A stretch of 64,000 nt of DNA from the NCBI GenBank assembly GCA_017513085.1, contig JAFWDK010000016.1, forward strand, positions 1 to 64,000, read 5' to 3'. Positions 2,949 through 64,000 of this stretch are shown in pieces. The number at the start of each line of letters is the position of its first letter. Positions within the stretch are counted from its first letter, which is position 1. Under the pieces are notes generated by a model. That model saw only the letters and a list, made by a program, of their open reading frames with translations, was not told the origin of the DNA and made no database searches. Source of the stretch: Clostridiales bacterium. Lineage in GTDB: Bacteria > Bacillota > Clostridia > Saccharofermentanales > Saccharofermentanaceae. The position numbers and the translations under genes are program-made.

Positions 2949-4964
2949 TTATTCTTTGTCGTATTTAGGATTCTGCAATCGTTCGCTCATCTTTTCTTTC
3001 GGAAGAGGACGGTCATAGTAATAGCCCTGGATCACATTCGCACCTAAGGCGCGCAGTGTCTCAACCTGGGAAGGCTGCTCCACGCCTTCCGCCACGATCT
3101 TTAAGCCGATATCGATGGCCAGCTTGATTATATGGTCCAATATAGTTAGGTCTTTGGAATGGTCACGATCGATAAAACCTTTATCGATCTTCATCGTATC
3201 AAAGTTGATCTCGCGAAGCACAGACATGGAGGAATTGCCACATCCGAAATCATCGATGGAAGCGCCATAACCCAGGTCGTGAAGTGCGTCAACAAAAGAC
3301 TTCAGCACGCTGAGCGGGAACTCATCGACCGTTTCCGTGATTTCGATCTCAATCAGATTTTTCGGAATACCGCTTTCTCTGACCACCGCATCGATCTTCT
3401 TCGCCAGATCCGGATCCGCAAGATTCCTTCTGGAAAAATTCACTGAGATCGGTGGGATCTCCACACCTTCTTTACGCCACGCAGCAATATCCGCGCATAT
3501 CTTCCGAAGCATATACATGTCCAGATCACAGATCGAATCATTTCTCTCCATGATCGGGATAAAGTCTCCCGGGTCTACGATCTGTCCGTTATGGATCCAT
3601 CTTGCCAACGCCTCAGCGCCGCACAAAGTATTTGTTTTGCTGTTGACCTTCGGCTGGTAGAATGGAATAAACTCATCGTGACTTAACGCATAGCGGATAT
3701 CCGAATCGAAACGCCTCCGGGTTTCGATCGCATCCATCAGTTCCTGCGTCATATATACTGTCTCCTTGCCCATGCTTCTGGCATGATTAAGCGCCGTTCT
3801 GGCGTATGTCACGACCTCTTCTCCCTTAATCTCCTCCCGCGAGATCTCATACACTCCTGCTCTCGCCGCGATGCTCTCAGTCAGCTCTGTGCCCGTATCG
3901 TCCTTAAACTGCACACGCACGCCTTTCAGTTTCTCAAGGATTTCTGGCAGATTCTTCTTCTTCACCAACACAATAAACTGATCTGCGTTCGGATGTCCCA
4001 TAAACTCATCCGGATCGAGTTCTGCTGCAAAAGCACTTGCATACGCACTCAGAATGTGGTTTCCCACATCGACTCCGTATTTGCGGTTGAGCAAGGTGAA
4101 TTTGGTAAGATCAAAATACACCGCCGCATAGTTCTTCATGTCGCTTTTTTTCGTATGGATCCACTCGATGCAGCCATGCTCGTTGGAAAGACCGGTTCGT
4201 ATATCCGTGCGCTCCGCGATGCGTATCTGCCGGTTCTGATAGATGATGTTCTCGATAAACATCACATGTACCGATGCGGCCACGCCGATATCCATATAAG
4301 CAAATCCATAGAAGAAATACTGGAACAGGAAACCCACCAGAGGGAATACGATATACGAGGTCAGCGCCAGGAAACGGCTGGTGGTCGTCTCTTTCCGATA
4401 CTGAAGAAGGATAGAGAAAATGATTGCCATACCTGTTACAGGAATAAGCACCGACAACGGGAAAAGATCTCCGCGATGGTAGAAATTCTCTGCATCGATC
4501 GTGTAATACAAGCCGGAGAAGTGTGAGATGACGACCATTCCCATGCCTACCACAGAAAGCATGCAGCAGGTCAGAAAACGGAAGCGGCATCGCTGTTCCC
4601 GTTTCAGATCAAAATGCCCGAAAAGAACTATGGATTCATAAATAATGATCGCAACAAGAAACAGATCGCATATCAGGAACACGGCCAGAGTGGACACCTG
4701 CATGACCAACGAGCTGAAAGGCGTGACTCTTCCCGGAAGAATGTACGTCAGATAATCGAAAAGGAGCATAAAGCCTGCCAGAACATTGAGAAATACCACG
4801 GCATGCTTCGCCTTGACATCCCGACTGTTTTTGACCGCAGAAAGCACAGCCGAAACAAAGCAGAAAATCGACTCAAAAAGAAGAAATGCTACTTGAACTG
4901 CAAAAAAGTCTACCAATCCTGATTTGCCCTCCTCCCCCGAAGAATTCGGGAGTACGACCCGCAT
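2949..4964 (-). CDS. Membrane-anchored c-di-GMP phosphodiesterase with degenerate GGDEF and intact EAL
   Basis: About 7 N-terminal TM segments; GGDEF position reads PNADQF; AEALARW, DDFG, KID and AEGVE intact. The true start may be the TTG near 4916. Confidence 0.9.
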   Translation of the reverse strand: MRVVLPNSSGEEGKSGLVDFFAVQVAFLLFESIFCFVSAVLSAVKNSRDVKAKHAVVFLNVLAGFMLLFDYLTYILPGRVTPFSSLVMQVSTLAVFLICDLFLVAIIIYESIVLFGHFDLKREQRCRFRFLTCCMLSVVGMGMVVISHFSGLYYTIDAENFYHRGDLFPLSVLIPVTGMAIIFSILLQYRKETTTSRFLALTSYIVFPLVGFLFQYFFYGFAYMDIGVAASVHVMFIENIIYQNRQIRIAERTDIRTGLSNEHGCIEWIHTKKSDMKNYAAVYFDLTKFTLLNRKYGVDVGNHILSAYASAFAAELDPDEFMGHPNADQFIVLVKKKNLPEILEKLKGVRVQFKDDTGTELTESIAARAGVYEISREEIKGEEVVTYARTALNHARSMGKETVYMTQELMDAIETRRRFDSDIRYALSHDEFIPFYQPKVNSKTNTLCGAEALARWIHNGQIVDPGDFIPIMERNDSICDLDMYMLRKICADIAAWRKEGVEIPPISVNFSRRNLADPDLAKKIDAVVRESGIPKNLIEIEITETVDEFPLSVLKSFVDALHDLGYGASIDDFGCGNSSMSVLREINFDTMKIDKGFIDRDHSKDLTILDHIIKLAIDIGLKIVAEGVEQPSQVETLRALGANVIQGYYYDRPLPKEKMSERLQNPKYDKE

Positions 4965-5079
4965 AACCTATATTTCCAATTATACTCGCGCGCATATGTA
5001 AAAGCAATTTGTGTATTTTAACGCTTGAAAAACTTTCTGTTACATAAGAAAATACTATGTGGTAGAAAGGCGGACGAAT

Positions 5080-55959: not shown

Positions 55960-57216
55960 ATGAATAACATGCTCATGAGCCTGGCTTTAGTACTTCTTAT
56001 CGGATTCTGCATCAGCGGGATCTTTAAGAAGCTGCATATTCCGTCCCTTTTGGGACTTATCATTACAGGTATCGTGCTCGGTCCGTCCGTCCTGAATCTT
56101 CTCGATCCGAAGATCCTGTCGATCTCTTCCGAGCTTCGTGAGATCGCTCTGATCGTTATTCTTTTCCGCGCAGGTCTGAGTCTGGATATCAGTGACATGA
56201 AGAAGATCGGACGTCCGGCGATCATGCTGTGCTTCGTGCCGGCTACATTTGAAATCATCGGTGCTATCGTCCTTGGTCCTGCATGTCTCGGTCTTTCCCG
56301 TGTGGATTCTGCCATTGTTGGCGCCATGCTGGCTGCTGCTTCCCCGGCGATCATTGTGCCGAAGATGCTGTGGCTCATGGAAGAGGGCTATGGTACGGAC
56401 AAGCATATCCCTCAACTCATCATGGCCGGCGCTTCCGCCGACGATATCTACGCCATCGTACTCTTCACCGCCTTCATCGGCATGAGCAAGGGTGACGGCA
56501 TCTCCGCCTGGACCATCGTATCGATCCCGATCTCCATCGTGACCGGTCTTGCTGTCGGTATCGTGTTCGGCATCATCATCTCACAGATCTTCAAGATGAT
56601 CCATCTTCGTGACACAGTAAAGATCCTCCTTCTCTTCGGTCTGTCTTTCCTGTTTGTCGGATGCGAATCCTTTATTTCGAAATACGTCCCCTTCTCAGGA
56701 CTTCTGGCCGTCATGGCTCTGGGCGGAGCGATCCTGAACCGCCGTGCGACCGTGGCCAAGCGTCTCTCCGTCAAGATTTCCAAGATCTGGGTCGGTGCCG
56801 AACTTTTGCTGTTCGTCATGCTGGGGTCTGCCGTTGAGATCAAGGCTCTGCTCTCTGCAGGTCTGGGTTCTGTCCTTCTGATCTTAGGCGCGCTTTTGTT
56901 CCGTTCGGTCGGCGTCATCGTCAGTCTTCTTGGTTCCGGTCTCACCTGGAAAGAGATCCTCTATTGTGACGTCGCCTATTTCCCGAAAGCAACCGTTCAG
57001 GCAGCCGTTGGTGCGATTCCTCTGGCGCAGGGTCTTCTCTGCGGTATGATGGTCCTGACCACCGCTGTTTTGTCCATTCTCATTACCGCACCGCTCGGCG
57101 CGATCCTTATGGATCTGACCGTCAAAAAATGTCTCAAGCGGAGCAAGAACCCACGAGAGCTTTCGAGCCGGAATCCCGGACTCAATCTCCCCCCGGAAGA
57201 AAAAAGTTCAATGTGA
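55960..57216 (+). CDS. Cation:proton antiporter (CPA1/NhaP-NHA type)
   Basis: IILFRAGL-like motif, AASPAIIVP, ASADD, PKATVQAA, ILITAPLGA. Confidence 0.92.
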   Translation: MNNMLMSLALVLLIGFCISGIFKKLHIPSLLGLIITGIVLGPSVLNLLDPKILSISSELREIALIVILFRAGLSLDISDMKKIGRPAIMLCFVPATFEIIGAIVLGPACLGLSRVDSAIVGAMLAAASPAIIVPKMLWLMEEGYGTDKHIPQLIMAGASADDIYAIVLFTAFIGMSKGDGISAWTIVSIPISIVTGLAVGIVFGIIISQIFKMIHLRDTVKILLLFGLSFLFVGCESFISKYVPFSGLLAVMALGGAILNRRATVAKRLSVKISKIWVGAELLLFVMLGSAVEIKALLSAGLGSVLLILGALLFRSVGVIVSLLGSGLTWKEILYCDVAYFPKATVQAAVGAIPLAQGLLCGMMVLTTAVLSILITAPLGAILMDLTVKKCLKRSKNPRELSSRNPGLNLPPEEKSSM

Positions 57217-57241
57217 TAATTCTTGGCTAATGTAAAAACTG

Positions 57242-57275
57242 ATGGGGAGACACGAAAAATGTTGTGTCTCCCCAT
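57242..57275. terminator. Bidirectional hairpin at the left boundary of the island
   Basis: ATGGGGAGACAC/GTGTCTCCCCAT 12-bp perfect stem. Confidence 0.8.
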
Positions 57276-57283
57276 TTACATTC

Positions 57284-57619
57284 TTAGTCTTCAATTACAC
57301 CCTCAGCTGATTCTATAAACGACCAAATGTTATATTTCTCTGTCTCCTCCGGGTATTTTTCTGCAAGCCTTTTGATCGCATCTATGAAAGCAGGACTCTG
57401 AGATATTTTTGCAATATCATCAAAAACTTCGCTTAGCCATGAGAACTGATCGGCAGTACAATCATTATCAAGAAACTCAACAGACTGGTTAATGTCTTCA
57501 GTAAACAACGCAATCAGTTTCTTATGGTTCTGGTCTATTCCCTCTTCCCACTCATCTTGTCCTTCAATCCAAAGGTGTTCACGTTCTTCAATTATAGGTA
57601 TTATCTTTTCTTTAATCAT
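57284..57619 (-). CDS. Probable immunity/antitoxin protein
   Basis: 111-aa acidic helical protein, ATGA-coupled directly downstream of a basic nuclease toxin. Confidence 0.65.
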   Translation of the reverse strand: MIKEKIIPIIEEREHLWIEGQDEWEEGIDQNHKKLIALFTEDINQSVEFLDNDCTADQFSWLSEVFDDIAKISQSPAFIDAIKRLAEKYPEETEKYNIWSFIESAEGVIED

Positions 57620-58122
57620 TTTTTCTTCCTCCGTAAAACCGAACTCTGGTCACTGTCTGGAAAGACAGTGGCTATTTTTCCATGTGTTTTTATAACGCCA
57701 ACTCGAACTCCTTTATATACACCCCACATTGTTACTCCATCAGGGGATCGTCGATTCTGTCGTAACCCTGCAACATGTTCGCCGGCACGTCGAATATCCC
57801 TATTGGTCCATTCCTTTGGAAACCAAGCTTGTCCTATGCCAGAACGTTTCTGCTTATTGGCATGATCTGGAATATAGCCGACTCGGACACCATTAGTATA
57901 TGTCTTAACTATATGGTATTCAATTTTGTATTTGTCAAGTAATTCCATGCCATACTGACTATGTCCTCCGCTAGCCAGTCGAATTTTCTTGCTCGTTTTG
58001 CCGTCCTTCTTAATCATTCTCCATTTGAAAGTTCCCTCACTGGAATGTACTAAAGCAAAATCACTTACGCTTCTACCTGAACCTTTTGTGTTCAAGTATC
58101 TGCCACTTTTACTCGTCCCCAT
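57616..58122 (-). CDS. Bacterial EndoU-type RNase toxin (168 aa) with a short N-terminal tail MGTSKSGRY
   Basis: GAGGTG RBS and ATG at 58122; GGHSQ, NGVRVG..P.H, QAWFPKEW, IATVFP motifs. Confidence 0.8.
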   Translation of the reverse strand: MGTSKSGRYLNTKGSGRSVSDFALVHSSEGTFKWRMIKKDGKTSKKIRLASGGHSQYGMELLDKYKIEYHIVKTYTNGVRVGYIPDHANKQKRSGIGQAWFPKEWTNRDIRRAGEHVAGLRQNRRSPDGVTMWGVYKGVRVGVIKTHGKIATVFPDSDQSSVLRRKKK

Positions 58123-58786
58123 GTTTATCACCTCGCTTATATGAAATCCAGTCCGGCAAAACATGAAAATTCGTGTATTTTCCGTATTCCTGAATATACT
58201 TTTTGTTAAAAGCTCCATACACCACAACATCCGTTGGTGACAGATAATCAAACATGGCTTCAAGAAATGCAGATAGATGATACTTATCCTCTTTCTTCTG
58301 ACAACAGCCATACGTTCCGATAGAAACATTACTTTTCTTCGGAATCCCTGCAAAAGATGGTGGAATATCAAAAAACATATTGGTATAAGTTCGTTCATCA
58401 CCCCAGCGAACGTTGGGAATCACATATTTCCCTTGTTGTTGCTCATAGTAACCAACAGAACGGCTAACTCCTATATTGGCCAATTGCTCCCATAACGGCA
58501 TATCACGATAAAGTGAACAGTCAGGAGTTGACATCATTTTGACCTTTGAAAGAAGTGAGTCATAGCTTTGAGGAACAGATACAAAATTCCTAAATATTGG
58601 ATCCTGTTCATAAAAAACAAGCATATCCAACGGATCAGAGATCTGCTCGATTTTCGAAAAAGGTACTGCCCTCTTTGGAATGATTATCTCTTTTGGAGCC
58701 TCTAAGACAGGAATCTCAAGAAGAGATTCAAAATACGCTGTTTCAATGAGTTTTGAATTAAACCCATCATAAAATAGACTATTCAT
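58109..58786 (-). CDS. DUF4417-domain protein
   Basis: FYEQD..F, TPDCSLYRDMP...Q..N, VIPNVRWG, FAGIP, IGTYG, L.P..VVVYG; AAGGAGG RBS. Confidence 0.85.
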   Translation of the reverse strand: MNSLFYDGFNSKLIETAYFESLLEIPVLEAPKEIIIPKRAVPFSKIEQISDPLDMLVFYEQDPIFRNFVSVPQSYDSLLSKVKMMSTPDCSLYRDMPLWEQLANIGVSRSVGYYEQQQGKYVIPNVRWGDERTYTNMFFDIPPSFAGIPKKSNVSIGTYGCCQKKEDKYHLSAFLEAMFDYLSPTDVVVYGAFNKKYIQEYGKYTNFHVLPDWISYKRGDKHGDE

Positions 58787-58995
58787 AAATAGCCCTCCTT
58801 TCTCCGATGCTTAATCGGAATGTTTATTTATTTCGAAAAACAACAAAGAAAGGCAAATATGATGTATAATTGTTCTGTAGGTATGTGTTATACATGCATA
58901 TTTGCTAAACACATTGATTGTTGTTGCCGCAACAAATCAGTGTGTTTTTCTTTGTGATGTCAACACGATCAATTTGACCACCTCCCGATAATCGT

Positions 58996-59568
58996 TTATT
59001 GAGCACGTTGATAAACGTGATACTCTTCTGGTGCCAGAAGTTTGATAAGTGGTAGTTCATAATCAAACAACTTCGAACCATACCACTTCATCCTGTTTTT
59101 AATATTCGAAGATGCATAAGAAGCCGCAGCAGGACTGACTTTGCAGTGGATAGCAATATCGTTTGGCTCCACTATACCTTTGACAATTAAATAGGGTACA
59201 GGACACAAAAAGTATCTTGCAAAATAGTCCGCGAGATCATCCGAGTCTAAATCCTCTTCATTTTCGTTATCGACATAATGCTTTAATTCATGTGCAATCG
59301 TAAAACGCATCTCTTCTTTCGTAATTCCAAGATCGTTATAGTAAATCCTAGCTTCGCGTTCACAAGTGCCTCTAACAAAGAAACCTTTGCTTGATCTTTT
59401 GTTCAAAAGATCTACCTCATCATCTGTATATTTAGAATATGGAACAAGAGATACACCTAATTTGATACAAATCTTTTTCAACTTCAAAGGAAAAGATATA
59501 ATATCGTAGTCTATATATATTTGGATAATCTCTTTTGCTACCTCATCATATTCTGGTCCACTTCTCAT
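58996..59568 (-). CDS. ImmA/IrrE-family Zn metallopeptidase
   Basis: IYYND....RFTIAHELKH, ADYFARYFLCP. Confidence 0.9.
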   Translation of the reverse strand: MRSGPEYDEVAKEIIQIYIDYDIISFPLKLKKICIKLGVSLVPYSKYTDDEVDLLNKRSSKGFFVRGTCEREARIYYNDLGITKEEMRFTIAHELKHYVDNENEEDLDSDDLADYFARYFLCPVPYLIVKGIVEPNDIAIHCKVSPAAASYASSNIKNRMKWYGSKLFDYELPLIKLLAPEEYHVYQRAQ

Positions 59569-59882
59569 TTATTTTCTCCTTTCCCAAGAAGAAGCCGAAT
59601 AAGTTCATTCTTTTCCTCTGGAGACAATTCATTTCCTTTTCTTGCAATTGCAGTCGCAATCGCTTCAAAAGGAGTTTCACTTTTCTGATCATCTTCAAGA
59701 AAGAAATCTGGAGAAACATCAAGTGCCTTAGCAATATTAACGATAATATCCATGCGAGGGCTCTTATCTCCTGCCAGATAACGAGAAATAGAACTCTCAG
59801 TTATTCTGCTAAGAGATGCTAATTGTTTCTGATTAATTCCTTTAGATTTCATTAATGCTTTCACCTTTTCGTTCCATTCCAT
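59565..59882 (-). CDS. XRE-family HTH repressor
   Basis: INQKQLA...ITESSISRYLAG...P....IAKALDVSPDFFL; ATGA-coupled to ImmA. Confidence 0.92.
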   Translation of the reverse strand: MEWNEKVKALMKSKGINQKQLASLSRITESSISRYLAGDKSPRMDIIVNIAKALDVSPDFFLEDDQKSETPFEAIATAIARKGNELSPEEKNELIRLLLGKGENK

Positions 59883-59927
59883 ACAATCCCTCCGTTGCAC
59901 AACTCATAGTTCTTCTAGGTCAACATC

Positions 59928-59970
59928 ATTATAATTGCAAATTTGCAATTATGTAATTGCTTTTGCAATT
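59928..59970 (-). promoter_or_regulatory. Palindromic operator array over the XRE promoter
   Basis: Perfect 22-bp palindrome ATAATTGCAAATTTGCAATTAT (59931-59952) and AATTGC-TTTT-GCAATT (59955-59970); minus-strand TATAAT at 59933-59928. Confidence 0.7.
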
Positions 59971-60050
59971 TCTTTTTTGTTGACGTATTTCAATAATCCG
60001 CCTAAACTATGTATGCATTATTGAAAAACACTTGTAAGTGGAGGCTTCTC

Positions 60051-61301
60051 ATGGAGATTGCATTAGGTTTTGGTAAAGAAAAGATACCGGTAAATGTTCC
60101 GGATAATCAGGTTATGGCCGTACTCACGCCGAATGAAGCCGAGATCGGGCTGACAGGCAGTGACGAAGTCTACCGTTCCATGCGTGAGCCGATCGGCCTT
60201 CCGCCTCTTCGCGAAGTCGTAAAGAAAGGCGAGACCGTCGCGATCATCACCTCGGACATTACCCGTCCGATCCCGAGTTATAAAGTTCTTCCGGCTGTGC
60301 TCGACGAGCTGACTGCTGCCGGTATCGAAGACAAAGATATCACCATCGTATTCGCACTCGGTTCCCATGGCGGACACACCGAAGAGCGTATGCGTTACAT
60401 GGTCGGCGACGCCGTATATGACCGCGTCCGCTGCATCGATTCCGATGTCAATGACGCCGTACATGTCGGCACCACTTCCCGCGGCACCCCGGTCGACATC
60501 TTCCGCCCTGTCGTAGAAGCAGACCGCCGCATCTGTCTCGGCAACATCGAATATCACTACTTCGCCGGATACAGCGGAGGCTACAAGGCCATCATGCCAG
60601 GCGTCTCCACCTGGGATGCCATCCAGCACAACCACAGCGCCATGGTAGAAGAAGCGGCCTGCGCTGGCCGTCTCGAAGGCAATCCGGTCCGTGAAGATAT
60701 TGAAGAAAGCGGACGCATCCTGGGCGTCGACTATATCGTCAACGTCGTGCTCGATGCCAAGAAAGAAATCATCCGTAGCTTCGCCGGCGACCCGATCCTG
60801 GCGCACCGCGAAGGCTGCAAGTTCCTGGATTCTTTCTACAAAGTCAGCATCCCGGAAAAGGCCGACATCGTTGTCGTTTCCGCGGGCGGTTTCCCGAAGG
60901 ATATCAATATGTATCAGGCGCAAAAAGCACTGGACAATGCGAAGCATGCGGTCAAGGAGGGCGGTATCATCGTCTGGATCGCGTCCTGTAAGGAAGGTCT
61001 GGGCGAGCATCACTTTGAGCAGTGGCTCACCGGTCACGAGAAGAGTTCCGATATGATCACGCATATCAAGACTGACTTCGTCCTCGGCGGACACAAGGCT
61101 GCAGCTATCGCGATGGTACTGGAAAAGGCCCGTATCTTCTTTGTTTCCGACCTCGAACACGACTTCGTCAAGCGAGTCTTCTTAGAGCCGTATTCCGACA
61201 TTCAGACCGCAATCGATGCCGCGATTGAAGCTAAAGGAAAAGATGCCAAGATCGTCGTAATGCCTTATGGCGGATCGACACTTCCGAAGGTTGCCGAGTA
61301 A
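60051..61301 (+). CDS. larA: Nickel-pincer lactate racemase (LarA) family protein
   Basis: SDITRP, ALGSH, HYFAGYSGGYK, GG.PKD.N.YQ..K, VMPYG. Confidence 0.88.
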   Translation: MEIALGFGKEKIPVNVPDNQVMAVLTPNEAEIGLTGSDEVYRSMREPIGLPPLREVVKKGETVAIITSDITRPIPSYKVLPAVLDELTAAGIEDKDITIVFALGSHGGHTEERMRYMVGDAVYDRVRCIDSDVNDAVHVGTTSRGTPVDIFRPVVEADRRICLGNIEYHYFAGYSGGYKAIMPGVSTWDAIQHNHSAMVEEAACAGRLEGNPVREDIEESGRILGVDYIVNVVLDAKKEIIRSFAGDPILAHREGCKFLDSFYKVSIPEKADIVVVSAGGFPKDINMYQAQKALDNAKHAVKEGGIIVWIASCKEGLGEHHFEQWLTGHEKSSDMITHIKTDFVLGGHKAAAIAMVLEKARIFFVSDLEHDFVKRVFLEPYSDIQTAIDAAIEAKGKDAKIVVMPYGGSTLPKVAE

Positions 61302-61340
61302 AATACCGCATCCATTGATCAGGTAAAACAACAATTAACG

Positions 61341-61374
61341 AAAGAGGACGTCTGTTAGAAGGCGTCCTCTTTTT
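61341..61374. terminator. Bidirectional terminator
   Basis: AAAGAGGACG/CGTCCTCTTT stem. Confidence 0.8.
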
Positions 61375-61376
61375 CT

Positions 61377-61865
61377 TTATACTAGTTTCAGTTTTACGTC
61401 TACCGACTCGTCATCGCCGATGGTCAATATCGCGTAGCCGCCGCGCCTCAGTGCGCCTCCGTTAATAAACCGGATCCCCTCTTCCGTCTCGTCCACGGCA
61501 CAGTGAGTATGCCCGTACACCACGATGTCGCAGTGCTTTTCGCGCGCGGTAACGGCAAGGAGCGAATAGCTCGGGCCATGAAAAAGATGCCCATGCGTAA
61601 GGAATACCCGATGTGTTTCCGAGATCGGGAAAGCCAGGACCGGTGGCAATTGCGAAGCGGTATGAGTATAAATATCGCAGTTTCCGCAAACCATATACAA
61701 TTCAAATTTATGGTTTTCTTTGCGTATCACATCCTCGACCTCATGCGTCTCCATCTGAAGATCGCCGGCAATGATAACGCCATCCAGCGGAGATTCCTGC
61801 ATGACCACATAGCGTAGGTTTTCTTCCCGTCCGTGTATATCCGAACAAATCAGATATTTCTTCAT
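61377..61865 (-). CDS. Metallophosphoesterase (YfcE/MJ0936 family)
   Basis: SDIHG, AGD, GNCD, THG, GHTH, ING; GAGGTG RBS. Confidence 0.9.
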   Translation of the reverse strand: MKKYLICSDIHGREENLRYVVMQESPLDGVIIAGDLQMETHEVEDVIRKENHKFELYMVCGNCDIYTHTASQLPPVLAFPISETHRVFLTHGHLFHGPSYSLLAVTAREKHCDIVVYGHTHCAVDETEEGIRFINGGALRRGGYAILTIGDDESVDVKLKLV

Positions 61866-61875
61866 AGGATACACC

Positions 61876-62970
61876 TCACTCCTTATACATACGCTCCATA
61901 AATCGCGGATTCTCAGCTGAAAGAAGGTTTTGAGCCGCCTGATCCGCAAGTTCGATAGTCAACTTCTCATATTCACACTGCAACGCGGAAACCAAAGACA
62001 TTGAACCTGTATGTCCATGATTCGCGCAGGCACACATATGGCGGCAACGCGGGCGAAGCACGCACTCCGAGCAGTTTTTTTCTTCGATACGCTGCGATTC
62101 CAAAGAAGAAAGCTTCTTCTCATCAATGCCTGTTTCCAGGTCACCGACCAGGAAATCATCCCTACCGATAAAATGCGTGCACGGATAAAACTTTCCGTCC
62201 ACATCCACCATCATCTTATGTCCGCCGAAATGGCAAAGGCGGTTATCCGCGTCTCTTCCACGGATATAATTTCTGATCTTGTTTTCGAAAGGAAGAAACC
62301 GGAAAATATCATCTCCCCGATTCCATTTCTCATATAGTTTCTCCACTTTTTCCAGTTCCCGCCTAAGGACAGAAAACCTCTCCTCGGTCCAATCAACACG
62401 TTCTCCATGAGCCGGAACCAGGCTTACCGAGCGCACACCCTTTTCCCTGAAGAAGCAAATAGAATCCGCAATCTTATCCGCATGATCCGGATGCACCGTC
62501 ATCATAATGATCGTTTCCGGGAAAACACGGAGCAACATCTCCAGTTTTCTGTCGACCACTTCGGAAGTAGTCCTTCCGCCACGGTCAACACGAGAAAGAT
62601 CCTGCGCCAATCCATCGTGTGAAAGTGCCAGCAGGATATGATTCTTCTTGGCAAAAGCAAGAAACTCTTCGTCCAGCAAGAGTCCATTGGTCGTGATCTC
62701 GAAGGTGACTTTCATACCGGAGATCGTTCGTGTTTTCTGCTGTGCGTACTGAACCAGAAACTCGATCTCTTTCCGGGCCAGAAGCGGTTCTCCTCCATAA
62801 AAGGATATCTGCGCGCTTCCTGTCAACAAGTTATCGATGGCCCGCATCGCTGTTTCTATTGGCATATACTTGTCCTCATGTTTCTGAAGACAATACCTGC
62901 AATCAAAATTACACTGGTGAGTCATCACCAGTGTAAGTCTTTGCATCTTCATAGATCCTTGATCCTTCAT
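61876..62970 (-). CDS. Radical SAM/SPASM protein, peptide-maturase-like
   Basis: CNFDCRYC, FYGGEPLL, TTNG, SHDG; SPASM CHFG..G..YPC...CSEC.....C...CAC.N...C. The start could also be 62952 or 63030. Confidence 0.9.
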   Translation of the reverse strand: MKDQGSMKMQRLTLVMTHQCNFDCRYCLQKHEDKYMPIETAMRAIDNLLTGSAQISFYGGEPLLARKEIEFLVQYAQQKTRTISGMKVTFEITTNGLLLDEEFLAFAKKNHILLALSHDGLAQDLSRVDRGGRTTSEVVDRKLEMLLRVFPETIIMMTVHPDHADKIADSICFFREKGVRSVSLVPAHGERVDWTEERFSVLRRELEKVEKLYEKWNRGDDIFRFLPFENKIRNYIRGRDADNRLCHFGGHKMMVDVDGKFYPCTHFIGRDDFLVGDLETGIDEKKLSSLESQRIEEKNCSECVLRPRCRHMCACANHGHTGSMSLVSALQCEYEKLTIELADQAAQNLLSAENPRFMERMYKE

Positions 62971-63001
62971 TCGTATTTCCTTTTCCGTACCTGCAGACAG
63001 C

Positions 63002-63403
63002 TTATGAATCTGTCGTATCGTCTGACTCACATGTCTCGCAAGGAATTTCGCCTTCGATCATGCAATCGTCTGACGGTTCGGTCTCGATCGTTTCTTCGCC
63101 CATCAAGACTTCTGTTTCATCTGTCGGCTCAGTCGTAATTTGAACAACATCGCCATCAATCACCATTTCTGTTGTTTCAAAACCGCCGAAATCCAATCCG
63201 TTCGCCATTCCACCCAAAAATCCCTTTGTTCTGCCGTTTCCTTCCGAAGTTTTGTCACCACATCCCGTAGCCAGTGACATGGTCGCTGCCAGAGCAGTAA
63301 CGGCAGCAATCTTTGTTACCGCTGACACCTTGGAAAAATGCTTGACCTGTTCCAATGTCGGATATCCGGGATTCACATTGTTTTTGATCGGCGACTGTTT
63401 CAT
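63002..63403 (-). CDS. Lipoprotein, candidate radical-SAM substrate (RiPP-like precursor)
   Basis: AGGAGG RBS; N-terminal extension containing PGYP; lipobox LATGC (Cys48); acidic tail with repeats VIDGDVV, VLMGEET, MIEGEIP. Confidence 0.75.
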   Translation of the reverse strand: MKQSPIKNNVNPGYPTLEQVKHFSKVSAVTKIAAVTALAATMSLATGCGDKTSEGNGRTKGFLGGMANGLDFGGFETTEMVIDGDVVQITTEPTDETEVLMGEETIETEPSDDCMIEGEIPCETCESDDTTDS

Positions 63404-63435
63404 ATTCTTGTCCTCCTGATTTCTCTTTCATATAT

Positions 63436-63572: not shown

Positions 63573-64000
63573 TCAGTGTTTCGATTTTATCTGTATCGCC
63601 GTACCGGCGCCGATCAGTGCCGCCCATATGAAAAAGGACACCCAGACATTTTCGCACCCTTGCTTCACAACCGGATCCAGGAAGGACGGGAGTTTCTCCC
63701 ACGAATACAGAAGTCCTGCCGTCGTCACGAAAGCATCGCGGATAATGTCCGCGCCGATTACGGCAGTGATCACTTTAATGGCCGGCTCCTGAAGTATGCA
63801 GATCAGAATGCCCACCAGGATACCGATCACCGCAGCGATCAGGCAGATCGCTAAGAATTTCTCCCACTCGGTATTGCCCGGAATATAGGACATCAAAGAC
63901 GAGATCTGTTTATCCGAGATCAGACTCTGACTGGCTTCCGAAGCCTCTGTCAGTTTCGCCACGGAGTTCGGGGAAAAGGTAATGAAAAGATTCAAGTTTG
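63573..64000 (-). CDS. 3' part of a membrane protein whose start lies beyond the window
   Basis: Open frame to the window edge; hydrophobic segments; ends GAGTAIQIKSKH (DUF4203-like). Confidence 0.7.
   Translation of the reverse strand, partial: NLNLFITFSPNSVAKLTEASEASQSLISDKQISSLMSYIPGNTEWEKFLAICLIAAVIGILVGILICILQEPAIKVITAVIGADIIRDAFVTTAGLLYSWEKLPSFLDPVVKQGCENVWVSFFIWAALIGAGTAIQIKSKH

Follow-up and report, generated by a model that had tools for sequence, protein, structure and literature searches.

A leader-tagged lipoprotein precursor and an adjacent radical SAM/SPASM protein as a candidate substrate-enzyme pair in a Clostridiales genome

The stretch of DNA analysed here, referred to below as the window, comprises 64,000 nucleotides of a Clostridiales bacterium (assembly GCA_017513085.1, contig JAFWDK010000016.1, positions 1 to 64,000). 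Near one of its ends, the minus strand carries three consecutive genes in the same orientation, encoding a lipoprotein-type precursor, an enzyme of the radical S-adenosylmethionine (SAM) superfamily with a SPASM region and a YfcE-type phosphoesterase. The focus of this report is the first two and the proposal that the precursor is the substrate of the enzyme. A first-pass annotation made from the sequence had reported a 133-residue protein, the enzyme next to it and then a metallophosphoesterase; all are present where it had placed them, and the sequence quoted is exact. The features of this locus, with the basis of each assignment in brackets, are as follows.

63412..63417, minus strand: ribosome-binding site AGGAGG, 8 nucleotides 5' of the precursor ATG
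63002..63403, minus strand: precursor gene, 133 residues plus stop, with putative leader, lipoprotein signal peptide and acidic repeat tail (list of open reading frames)
63344..63403, minus strand: putative leader, residues 1-20, MKQSPIKNNVNPGYPTLEQV (P12, Y14 and P15 invariant or nearly so; hhalign; complex prediction)
63260..63343, minus strand: residues 21-48, basic n-region, uncharged h-region I32-G47 and lipobox L-A-T-G-C48 (sequence pattern)
63005..63259, minus strand: predicted mature tail, residues 49-133, 85 residues (composition; low model confidence, with a predicted local distance difference test (pLDDT) of 46-48 for the partner)
63143..63166, minus strand: Gly-centred motif 1, MVIDGDVV, G84 (G84 invariant in alignment A2; motif statistics)
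63089..63109, minus strand: Gly-centred motif 2, VLMGEET, G102 (G102 at least 90% conserved in A2)
63029..63064, minus strand: Gly-centred motif 3 inside a Cys patch, CMIEGEIPCETC, with C114, G118, C122 and C125 (sequence of the open reading frame; motif statistics)
61876..62970, minus strand: radical SAM/SPASM enzyme gene (probable start M21 at 62970, alternative start M27 at 62952; mechanical open reading frame to 63030)
62890..62913, minus strand: CX3CX2C radical SAM cluster motif, C14, C18 and C21 in numbering from M27 (no variation among 22 of 22 sequences)
61975..62235, minus strand: SPASM region with eight invariant cysteines, C240, C258, C294, C297, C303, C307, C309 and C326 (homologue alignment)
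61879..61965, minus strand: C-terminal helical region of the enzyme, residues 330-358 (predicted leader docking site; conservation)
62909..62936, minus strand: hairpin, a 12-bp stem followed by TTTTGATT, within the enzyme codons LTLVMTHQCNFD (scan for terminator-like sites)
61377..61865, minus strand: phosphoesterase of 162 residues, Metallophos_2 / YfcE subfamily, starting 10 nucleotides past the enzyme stop

The long N-terminus of the precursor is taken to be real and no mis-called start, because the AGGAGG lies at this distance ahead of the ATG. Homologues of the enzyme begin at M21 or M27, and therefore the overlap between enzyme and precursor in the listed GTG open reading frame is probably not real.

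The precursor consists of an N-terminal extension, a lipoprotein-type signal peptide and an acidic tail. Three lysines (K21, K25, K31) make the n-region basic, the residues I32 to G47 carry no charge, and the subsequent L-A-T-G-C48 satisfies the lipobox pattern [LVI][ASTVI][GAS]C. The extension ahead of this lipobox, which the first-pass annotation had pointed out, is confirmed in sequence, and P12, Y14, P15 and C48 are invariant in the alignment of 27 relatives of the precursor. Among 65 partner proteins, i.e., the proteins encoded together with homologues of the enzyme, the lipobox cysteine is at least 90% conserved, and the sequence pattern makes lipidation and cleavage of the precursor at Cys48 a reasonable expectation. 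Cys48 stands later than is usual for lipoproteins because the putative leader precedes the signal peptide. The mature tail of 85 residues contains 24 Asp/Glu, 3 Lys/Arg and 3 Cys residues. No Pfam or NCBIfam model matches the precursor, and reading of its sequence revealed no C/S-x-P-x-R sulfatase motif.

The enzyme matches the Pfam model Radical_SAM PF04055 (E 1.3e-17), and its match to the Pfam model SPASM (E 0.012, 16.4 bits) falls below the cut-off of 21.5. Three plus eight cysteines are invariant in the alignment of 22 homologues, namely C14/C18/C21 and eight between residues 240 and 326; by sequence, the latter are a full SPASM complement, as for two auxiliary clusters. The closest named families are maturases of peptides or proteins, none of which reaches its cut-off: the best NCBIfam match is the PapB ranthipeptide maturase NF047865 (181.3 bits, cut-off 340; 225.8 bits for the relative from Hungatella), followed by the nif11-type maturase model (163 bits, cut-off 519), the SCIFF maturase TIGR03974 (133.9 bits, cut-off 425), QhpD TIGR03906 (126.5 bits, cut-off 453) and, among the weaker matches, the anaerobic sulfatase maturase TIGR03942 (103 bits, cut-off 349). 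Among solved structures, PDB 4k37 is matched by the enzyme profile with E 2.1e-33, and the closest by sequence is 5wgg (E 8.1e-58), which we take to be CteB and which aligns over chain residues 98-445 only. Since this alignment begins at CteB residue 98, the N-terminal RRE of CteB (the RiPP recognition element; RiPPs are peptides made by ribosomes and modified after translation) has no counterpart in the enzyme, which starts 13 residues ahead of its first cluster cysteine. At the other end, the profile match stops at position 338 of 360, and the last ~20 residues lie beyond this homology. They belong to a C-terminal helix in which D337 and A340 are invariant across the family and L343, N348, F351 and Y356 nearly so. 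Database names of the homologues are 'radical SAM protein' for the enzymes and 'hypothetical protein', without a Pfam domain, for the partners; the family of precursor and enzyme is in no curated family above cut-off. The same genome also holds a SCIFF-type paralogue of ~508 residues (G000:C26:159102-160190).

The two genes form a conserved pair. Of 23 genomes of the genus, 22 have the enzyme (56-72% identity) and the precursor homologue side by side on a single contig; both are missing from the other one (G008, 94% complete). Beyond the genus, 362 relatives of the enzyme were found in species-representative genomes, and the best 80 of these 362 loci were analysed. A hidden Markov model of the leader, covering the first ~62 residues and trained on 68 of the same partner proteins, finds a match at 73 of the 80 loci, 67 of which have it immediately upstream and on the same strand, four upstream and non-adjacent and two downstream. 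The family tag in these 73 loci is K-x-Y-x-x-P-x-Y-P plus a signal peptide. Inspection by eye divides the seven misses into three loci at contig ends, of which two (L050, L102) retain the C-terminal part of a partner and one (L092) cannot be judged, and four with a divergent 'AGYS' leader. The idea of a conserved functional pair of lipoprotein and SPASM enzyme, first put forward on the window alone, is thus borne out, and the neighbourhood check proposed with it, namely whether homologous enzymes lack an adjacent PxYP lipoprotein, recovered the tag at these 73 loci.

Close relatives (44-70% identity) are from metagenome-assembled genomes of rumen and gut Clostridia and accompany short acidic lipoproteins like that of the window. 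Distant relatives (~35% identity) occur in Hungatella, Pseudobacteroides and Formimonas as well as in Planctomycetota, Armatimonadota, Verrucomicrobiota and Acidobacteriota, and their upstream protein of ~270 residues begins with the same tag. Leader and signal peptide are all that the short acidic and the ~270-residue partners share (hhalign 97%, E 1.2e-10, 60 columns). All-against-all clustering of the open reading frames of the 80 loci revealed no third gene family common to close and distant loci.

The tag also travels with the enzyme in an independent sample of Clostridia genomes. The enzyme family is present in nine of 299 scored genomes (at least 346 bits, open reading frames of 358-402 residues), at a threshold set after the fact in the gap between 346 and 215 bits; the next-best matches, at 215 bits or less, are open reading frames of ~450-500 residues and probably common SCIFF-type enzymes. 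Six of 300 Clostridia genomes match the leader profile at E <= 1e-4, all of them among the nine with the enzyme and with the best match on the enzyme's contig, and the profile has no match in any of the 300 genomes outside these nine. By eye, the partner is cut by the contig start in one of the remaining three enzyme-positive genomes, and the other two (G195, G108) encode tandem acidic lipoproteins with a shortened tag, M-K-I-x-P-x-K-x-Y-K-K-P-L-Y-A, in which Ala replaces the second Pro (K-K-P-L-Y-A). Within the window's genome, a profile search for further tag-bearing proteins returned the precursor gene itself as the sole match. A search of 1.84 billion cluster representatives with the leader profile gave 1289 matches at E <= 0.001, of which 279 reach E <= 1e-10; nearly all of the 150 matches listed start at residue 1, in proteins of 59-515 residues. 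Furthermore, tandem arrays of two to three partner genes stand beside one enzyme gene in G155, G318, G108 and G195. Such arrays, as in many RiPP loci, count in favour of the partners being substrates. The tandem loci are as follows.

G155:C4:22018-23605: tandem partner locus
G318:C37:53124-54067: tandem partner locus
L106 1727-2459: tandem partner locus
L107 1-935: tandem partner locus
L072 76-1505: tandem partner locus

The leader is placed on the enzyme by a predicted complex whose inputs were the enzyme, SAM, three 4Fe-4S clusters and the precursor, with a separate alignment for each protein. The three runs scored 0.85, 0.85 and 0.83, versus 0.00 for all three controls; in calibration, 58 of 80 solved complexes attained the mark used, as did two of 110 mismatched pairs, counts that are rough in this case, with custom alignments and ligands included. 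At least 45% of the contacts are shared between the runs, and the pLDDT of the partner is 46-48. On the precursor, the confident interface comprises residues 1-10, 12-18 and 20, with some contacts at 31-43, and on the enzyme, residues 188-193, 229-232, 291-299 and 320-358. The C-terminal helix contributes residues 330, 333, 337, 340-341, 344-346, 349, 352, 356 and 358, and in the model Y14 of the precursor contacts Y229, I230, D337, A340, A341 and L344 of the enzyme. The model, whose scores express predicted confidence and no measured binding, fits docking of the leader on the SPASM and C-terminal region in place of an RRE. Two earlier suggestions gain from these results: the PxYP extension behaves as expected of a recognition leader, being the sole part common to all partners (by hhalign) and the part placed on the enzyme, and the complex model that had been suggested as a check predicts docking of precursor residues 1-20 on the SPASM/C-terminal helix region (0.85 versus 0.00 for the best control). 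The conservation of the pair, the association of the tag with the enzyme and this placement of the leader are what the computations show.

The first-pass annotation also drew attention to regularly spaced motifs centred on Gly, and family-wide these are a real feature. All the sequences it named (FLGGMA, DFGGFE, VIDGDVV, VLMGEET and MIEGEIP, with the linkers TEPTD and TEPSD) are found in the precursor tail. Over 29 related tails, the motif [LIVM]-x-G-[DEGA] occurs 119 times, versus 21.6 +/- 4.4 in 1000 shuffles (maximum 39), and a stricter form with five positions 90 times, versus 6.8 +/- 2.6. The repeat unit is approximately T-[ED]-[YW]-x-[LI]-[DE]-G-[ED]-[VEM]-x-[VT]-x-T, and in the unbiased alignment A2, G84 is invariant and G102 nearly so (at least 90%). 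A similar sequence, L-x-L-D-G-Y-D, sits within the folded domain of the long partners, 41 of which were compared (D kept in 40, L in 34, G in 32), and some of these partners carry extra copies of the motif in the linker after the lipobox.

For the long partner of Hungatella, an AlphaFold2 model was obtained with a pLDDT of 84.7 and a predicted template-modelling score (pTM) of 0.74. In Foldseek, no PDB entry matched this model at E <= 0.001. A fold resembling the Bax1 nuclease was considered and rejected: it is the best VIA-align row among 48,161 chains, with Z 6.3 (98 aligned residues, root-mean-square deviation 3.2), below the Z of 7-8 that is typical even without a clear match, and the rows after it are VRR-NUC-like with Z 5-6. 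The nearest clusters in the ESM Atlas are named 'hypothetical protein', and one carries the automatic label 'Metalloprotease'. Long partners end in a C-terminal helix motif, L-R-E-Q-V-x-D-F-x-x-W-L-K-x-Q-G-[IV]-[IL], and two minimal tag proteins, P0219 (83 residues) and P0205 (167 residues), consist of leader, lipobox and little beyond this helix motif. The helix may be a second functional element of the long partners; alternatively, P0219 and P0205 may be assembly fragments.

We lean slightly towards regarding the precursor and the radical SAM/SPASM protein as the substrate-enzyme pair of an undescribed, widespread family. The enzyme probably acts on this precursor, and the Gly-centred motif is a possible, by no means assured, site of modification. 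According to this proposal, the N-terminal ~20 residues of the precursor, with the pattern K-x-x-x-x-P-x-Y-P-T-L and located before the lipoprotein signal peptide, would serve as a leader that docks on the SPASM domain and the family-specific C-terminal helix of the enzyme, which would replace the missing RRE domain. The enzyme would then modify the mature part in the cytoplasm while the chain is unfolded, most likely at the repeated hairpin-like motif aromatic/aliphatic-x-[LI]-[DE]-G-[DE]. Subsequently, the chain would be exported and lipidated at Cys48, and signal peptidase II would remove leader and signal peptide in one cut, leaving a modified, strongly acidic lipopeptide of 85 residues on the cell surface.

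More specifically, and as a suggestion that we offer tentatively and rather doubt, the pair would represent a new class of enzyme-modified lipoproteins, in which a leader is fused before a Sec/signal peptidase II signal and an RRE-less SPASM enzyme reads this leader via its C-terminal helix and installs a Cys-independent modification on Gly-centred acidic hairpin motifs. If so, the housekeeping lipoprotein pathway would act as both leader peptidase and exporter, and the modification could be, e.g., epimerisation of aliphatic residues or a carbon-based cross-link or functionalisation at Asp/Glu. The class would then comprise more than 1000 protein clusters across Bacillota, Planctomycetota, Armatimonadota, Verrucomicrobiota and Acidobacteriota, and the surface of rumen Clostridia would bear a protease-hardened, lipid-anchored polyanionic peptide.

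Several points weigh against the proposed pair and its target. Modification of the precursor, its site and its chemistry are what we infer. The lipobox was judged by pattern only, and Cys48 lies farther from the N-terminus than in ordinary lipoproteins. Only leader and signal peptide are placed confidently in the complex model, with no core residue at the active site, and the docking score may partly have been helped by resemblance to solved enzyme-peptide complexes of the CteB type. The tail of the window taken alone contains three motifs versus 0.97 expected, which is not significant (P = 0.059, 5000 shuffles). The mature parts differ greatly, from the 85-residue acidic tail to an alpha/beta domain of ~200 residues and to P0219, which in its 83 residues has neither this domain nor the repeats; as they diverge in this way between subfamilies, a common target site is not proven. 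Finally, the Gly-centred motif could merely be structural, e.g., a beta-hairpin or a metal-binding turn.

Among other explanations, a thioether system of the ranthipeptide or QhpC type, in which the late cysteines C114, C122 and C125 would be linked to Asp/Glu side chains in DDCMIEGEIPCETCESDD and the repeats would act as a spacer, appears rather improbable. The top NCBIfam matches of the enzyme are thioether-forming maturases (PapB at 181.3, SCIFF at 133.9 and QhpD at 126.5 bits) and CteB is its closest solved relative, but all named maturase families score far below cut-off. Likewise, the tail in the window has its three cysteines in an Asp/Glu-rich patch, tail cysteines of relatives often stand 4-5 residues past the motif Gly (read by eye, no statistics), and long partners keep a cysteine in G-R-G-S-F-G-C in 36 of 41 cases; against this, ten of 29 short tails contain no cysteine and 15 a single one, the Cys-less tails include those of L027 and L031, whose enzymes are 64-70% identical, and the three cysteines of the window do not align with those of relatives. 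Since ten of the 29 tails lack cysteine, a Cys thioether cannot be the general reaction of the family. On these sequences the chemistry, whatever its kind, cannot in general depend on Cys. The earlier remark that cysteine signatures of the sactipeptide or ranthipeptide type are lacking holds insofar as such cysteines are not conserved; the thioether that it had left open does not stand as general chemistry but is conceivable for the window's own C-terminal Cys patch.

Less probable still is that the partner is a tether or regulator, whose cytoplasmic N-terminal tail on an uncleaved signal anchor would hold the enzyme at the membrane, where it would act on another substrate such as a lipid, an envelope precursor or a protein. 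The N-terminal tag and the hydrophobic segment are all that is common to the partners and all that the complex model places on the enzyme, and the extracytoplasmic parts of the partners vary freely, as expected for such an anchor. Cleavage, however, is what the lipobox cysteine in at least 90% of the 65 partners argues for, and no third gene family common to close and distant loci would supply another substrate. In addition, the closest named relatives of the enzyme are peptide or protein maturases, and tandem arrays of partners suit substrates better than anchors.

That an unremarkable acidic lipoprotein merely lies beside an orphan, e.g., sulfatase-maturase-like, SPASM enzyme with no functional link is highly improbable and already disfavoured, for although neither gene has a curated family assignment and the enzyme shows weak matches to sulfatase maturases (103 bits versus 349; PDB 4k37, E 2.1e-33), the two genes occur jointly in several phyla and disappear jointly, the complex model passes while every control scores 0.00, and the precursor lacks the C/S-x-P-x-R motif.

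The phosphoesterase, which the first-pass annotation had counted in with the other two genes, is a bystander. As a third member of the system it was rejected, being found solely in the window's own two loci among 104 loci. Relatives show a different order, with a Na+/H+ exchanger gene and a LarA-type gene following the enzyme on the same strand; exchanger and LarA-type genes are adjacent in 19 related loci. In the window, these two genes lie on the strand opposite to the enzyme, and the YfcE-type phosphoesterase stands directly after the enzyme (55960-61865). The opposite strand and the phosphoesterase at 55960-61865 suggest a local inversion or rearrangement. The segment 57284-59900, between exchanger and LarA-type gene, is a candidate inserted cassette and looks like a mobile or toxin-immunity cassette. 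Upstream of the precursor, the gene of a multi-pass membrane protein is syntenic in 22 close loci and absent from distant loci, and probably reflects inherited gene order, not membership of the system. The neighbouring features are as follows.

55960-57216, opposite strand to the enzyme: Na+/H+ exchanger
57284-57619: small acidic open reading frame after the EndoU open reading frame, possibly an immunity gene
57616-58401: open reading frame with a bacterial EndoU nuclease domain
58109-58786: DUF4417 protein
58996-59900: IrrE/M78-like peptidase and XRE-type helix-turn-helix regulator
60009-61301, plus strand: LarA homologue, NCBIfam 'nickel-dependent malate racemase, LarAH6 family' (571.8 bits versus cut-off 500)
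63573-64000, minus strand, running off the window: multi-pass membrane protein gene (weak Pfam TM7S3/TM198-like match)

The hairpin at 62909-62936 has a perfect 12-bp stem and lies ~70 nucleotides past the precursor stop. Of 19 relatives for which the site could be located, 14 retain the stem, and where Met is replaced by Val (ATG to GTG) the Thr codon switches from ACT to ACC, so that the pairing is preserved. Speculatively, it may be an attenuator that sets the ratio of precursor to enzyme, or else a by-product of complementary codons (CTG/CAG, GTG/CAC). A promoter scan found three promoter-like sites versus 3.3 in shuffles, i.e., no excess. Three metatranscriptome runs from two studies (X2; X4 and X5, the latter two from a single sample) yielded contigs of at least 99% likeness that span most of the precursor gene, as well as parts of the enzyme gene; as contigs of RNA libraries, these matches are no proof of transcription, its levels or its ends, and the contig breaks near the hairpin carry no weight.

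Radical SAM/SPASM enzymes are a major source of new peptide chemistry. The reading of the present genes as a leader-guided pair of maturase and lipoprotein is well supported by sequence comparison and by the predicted complex, and the repeat motif is a plausible target. If the pair reading is true, it would show substrate recognition by an enzyme that has no RRE. It would also extend the logic of RiPPs made through the lipoprotein pathway to radical SAM chemistry, with a new order of leader, signal peptide and core; such RiPPs were first described in 2026, and are reported there for MNIO enzymes only (PMC13056109). The family is large and has no name, with 1289 cluster representatives matched by the leader profile and 362 relatives of the enzyme. 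It includes cultured members, namely Hungatella hathewayi DSM 13479, Pseudobacteroides cellulosolvens and Candidatus Formimonas warabiya, and because tractable strains are thus available, the pair is directly testable; in the H. hathewayi pair (locus L101), the partner lies at 3183-4004 and the enzyme at 4001-5077. The substrates of the rumen genus, which would be short, rich in motifs and poor in cysteine, offer a handy probe for chemistry that is not explained by the Cys-, Trp- or Tyr-based classes.

Several known systems resemble the proposed pair in part. By the names of their models, the Bacteroides families TIGR04133 (rSAM_w_lipo) and TIGR04134 (lipo_with_rSAM) likewise combine a radical SAM enzyme with a putative lipoprotein, and a radical SAM-lipoprotein pair of Bacteroidota had been cited in the first-pass annotation as a parallel. 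This parallel falls away, as the family is a different one: the enzyme scores 24.7 bits against the TIGR04133 cut-off of 425, and TIGR04134 (cut-off 39.8 bits) has no match at E <= 1 in the window's genome. Other radical SAM genes of this genome were scored on TIGR04133 as well, one at G000:C5:7610-8596 (plus strand) with 269.6 bits against the cut-off of 425 and one at 1254-1829 of the window (plus strand) with 33.4 bits.

Similar in architecture are CteB/CteA (PDB 5wgg/5why) and the PapB family, which, like the present enzyme, have a radical SAM core and a full SPASM domain with two auxiliary clusters, and whose leader-bearing peptide is likewise encoded directly upstream. CteB carries an N-terminal RRE, through which it binds its leader, whereas the present enzyme lacks an RRE and its leader is predicted to dock on the SPASM and C-terminal helix region. 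PapB links Cys to Asp, and its family is defined by substrate cysteines linked to Asp/Glu. In contrast, the substrate here would be a lipoprotein precursor without conserved cysteines, and the enzyme reaches 134 bits versus 425 and 181 versus 340 for the CteB-type and PapB models, respectively. QhpD of the QhpD/QhpC system (TIGR03906), which serves the maturation of quinohemoprotein amine dehydrogenase, is a SPASM enzyme among the better matches (126.5 bits, under the cut-off of 453). Its target is a protein subunit that is modified prior to export, while still in the cytoplasm, with an N-terminal leader as guide. The QhpC chemistry requires cysteine, and export and leader removal are performed by a dedicated protease and transporter, not by the lipoprotein pathway.

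Modification of whole proteins by SPASM enzymes, as the partners of ~270 residues would require, has a precedent in CrpC/CrpA, described in 2026, where a SPASM enzyme is reported to introduce ranthionine into a protein rich in cysteine (PMC13692751). For CrpC that article gives a predicted RRE and for its substrate a high cysteine content (PMC13692751); neither feature is present here. Among open-access articles in PMC and preprints in bioRxiv, supplements excluded, none turned up that describes the pairing of a radical SAM/SPASM enzyme with a lipoprotein whose signal peptide is preceded by a leader tag.

A parallel in terms of maturation are the DAG-RiPPs, RiPP-lipoprotein hybrids reported in 2026 that are produced by MNIO (DUF692) enzymes and matured by the lipoprotein pathway (PMC13056109). 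The locus analysed here contains no MNIO gene, its neighbours being the radical SAM, phosphoesterase, membrane protein and LarA-type racemase genes, and the word 'radical' is absent from the main text of the DAG-RiPP article (PMC13056109). Recognition of DAG-RiPPs involves a C-terminal motif and requires no leader (PMC13056109), while the present system would combine a radical SAM/SPASM enzyme with a conserved leader before the signal peptide. As in the proposal made here, a cytoplasmic enzyme modifies a signal peptidase II precursor, whereupon the cysteine is lipidated and the signal peptide removed; DAG-RiPPs, too, are widespread across phyla in that description (PMC13056109).

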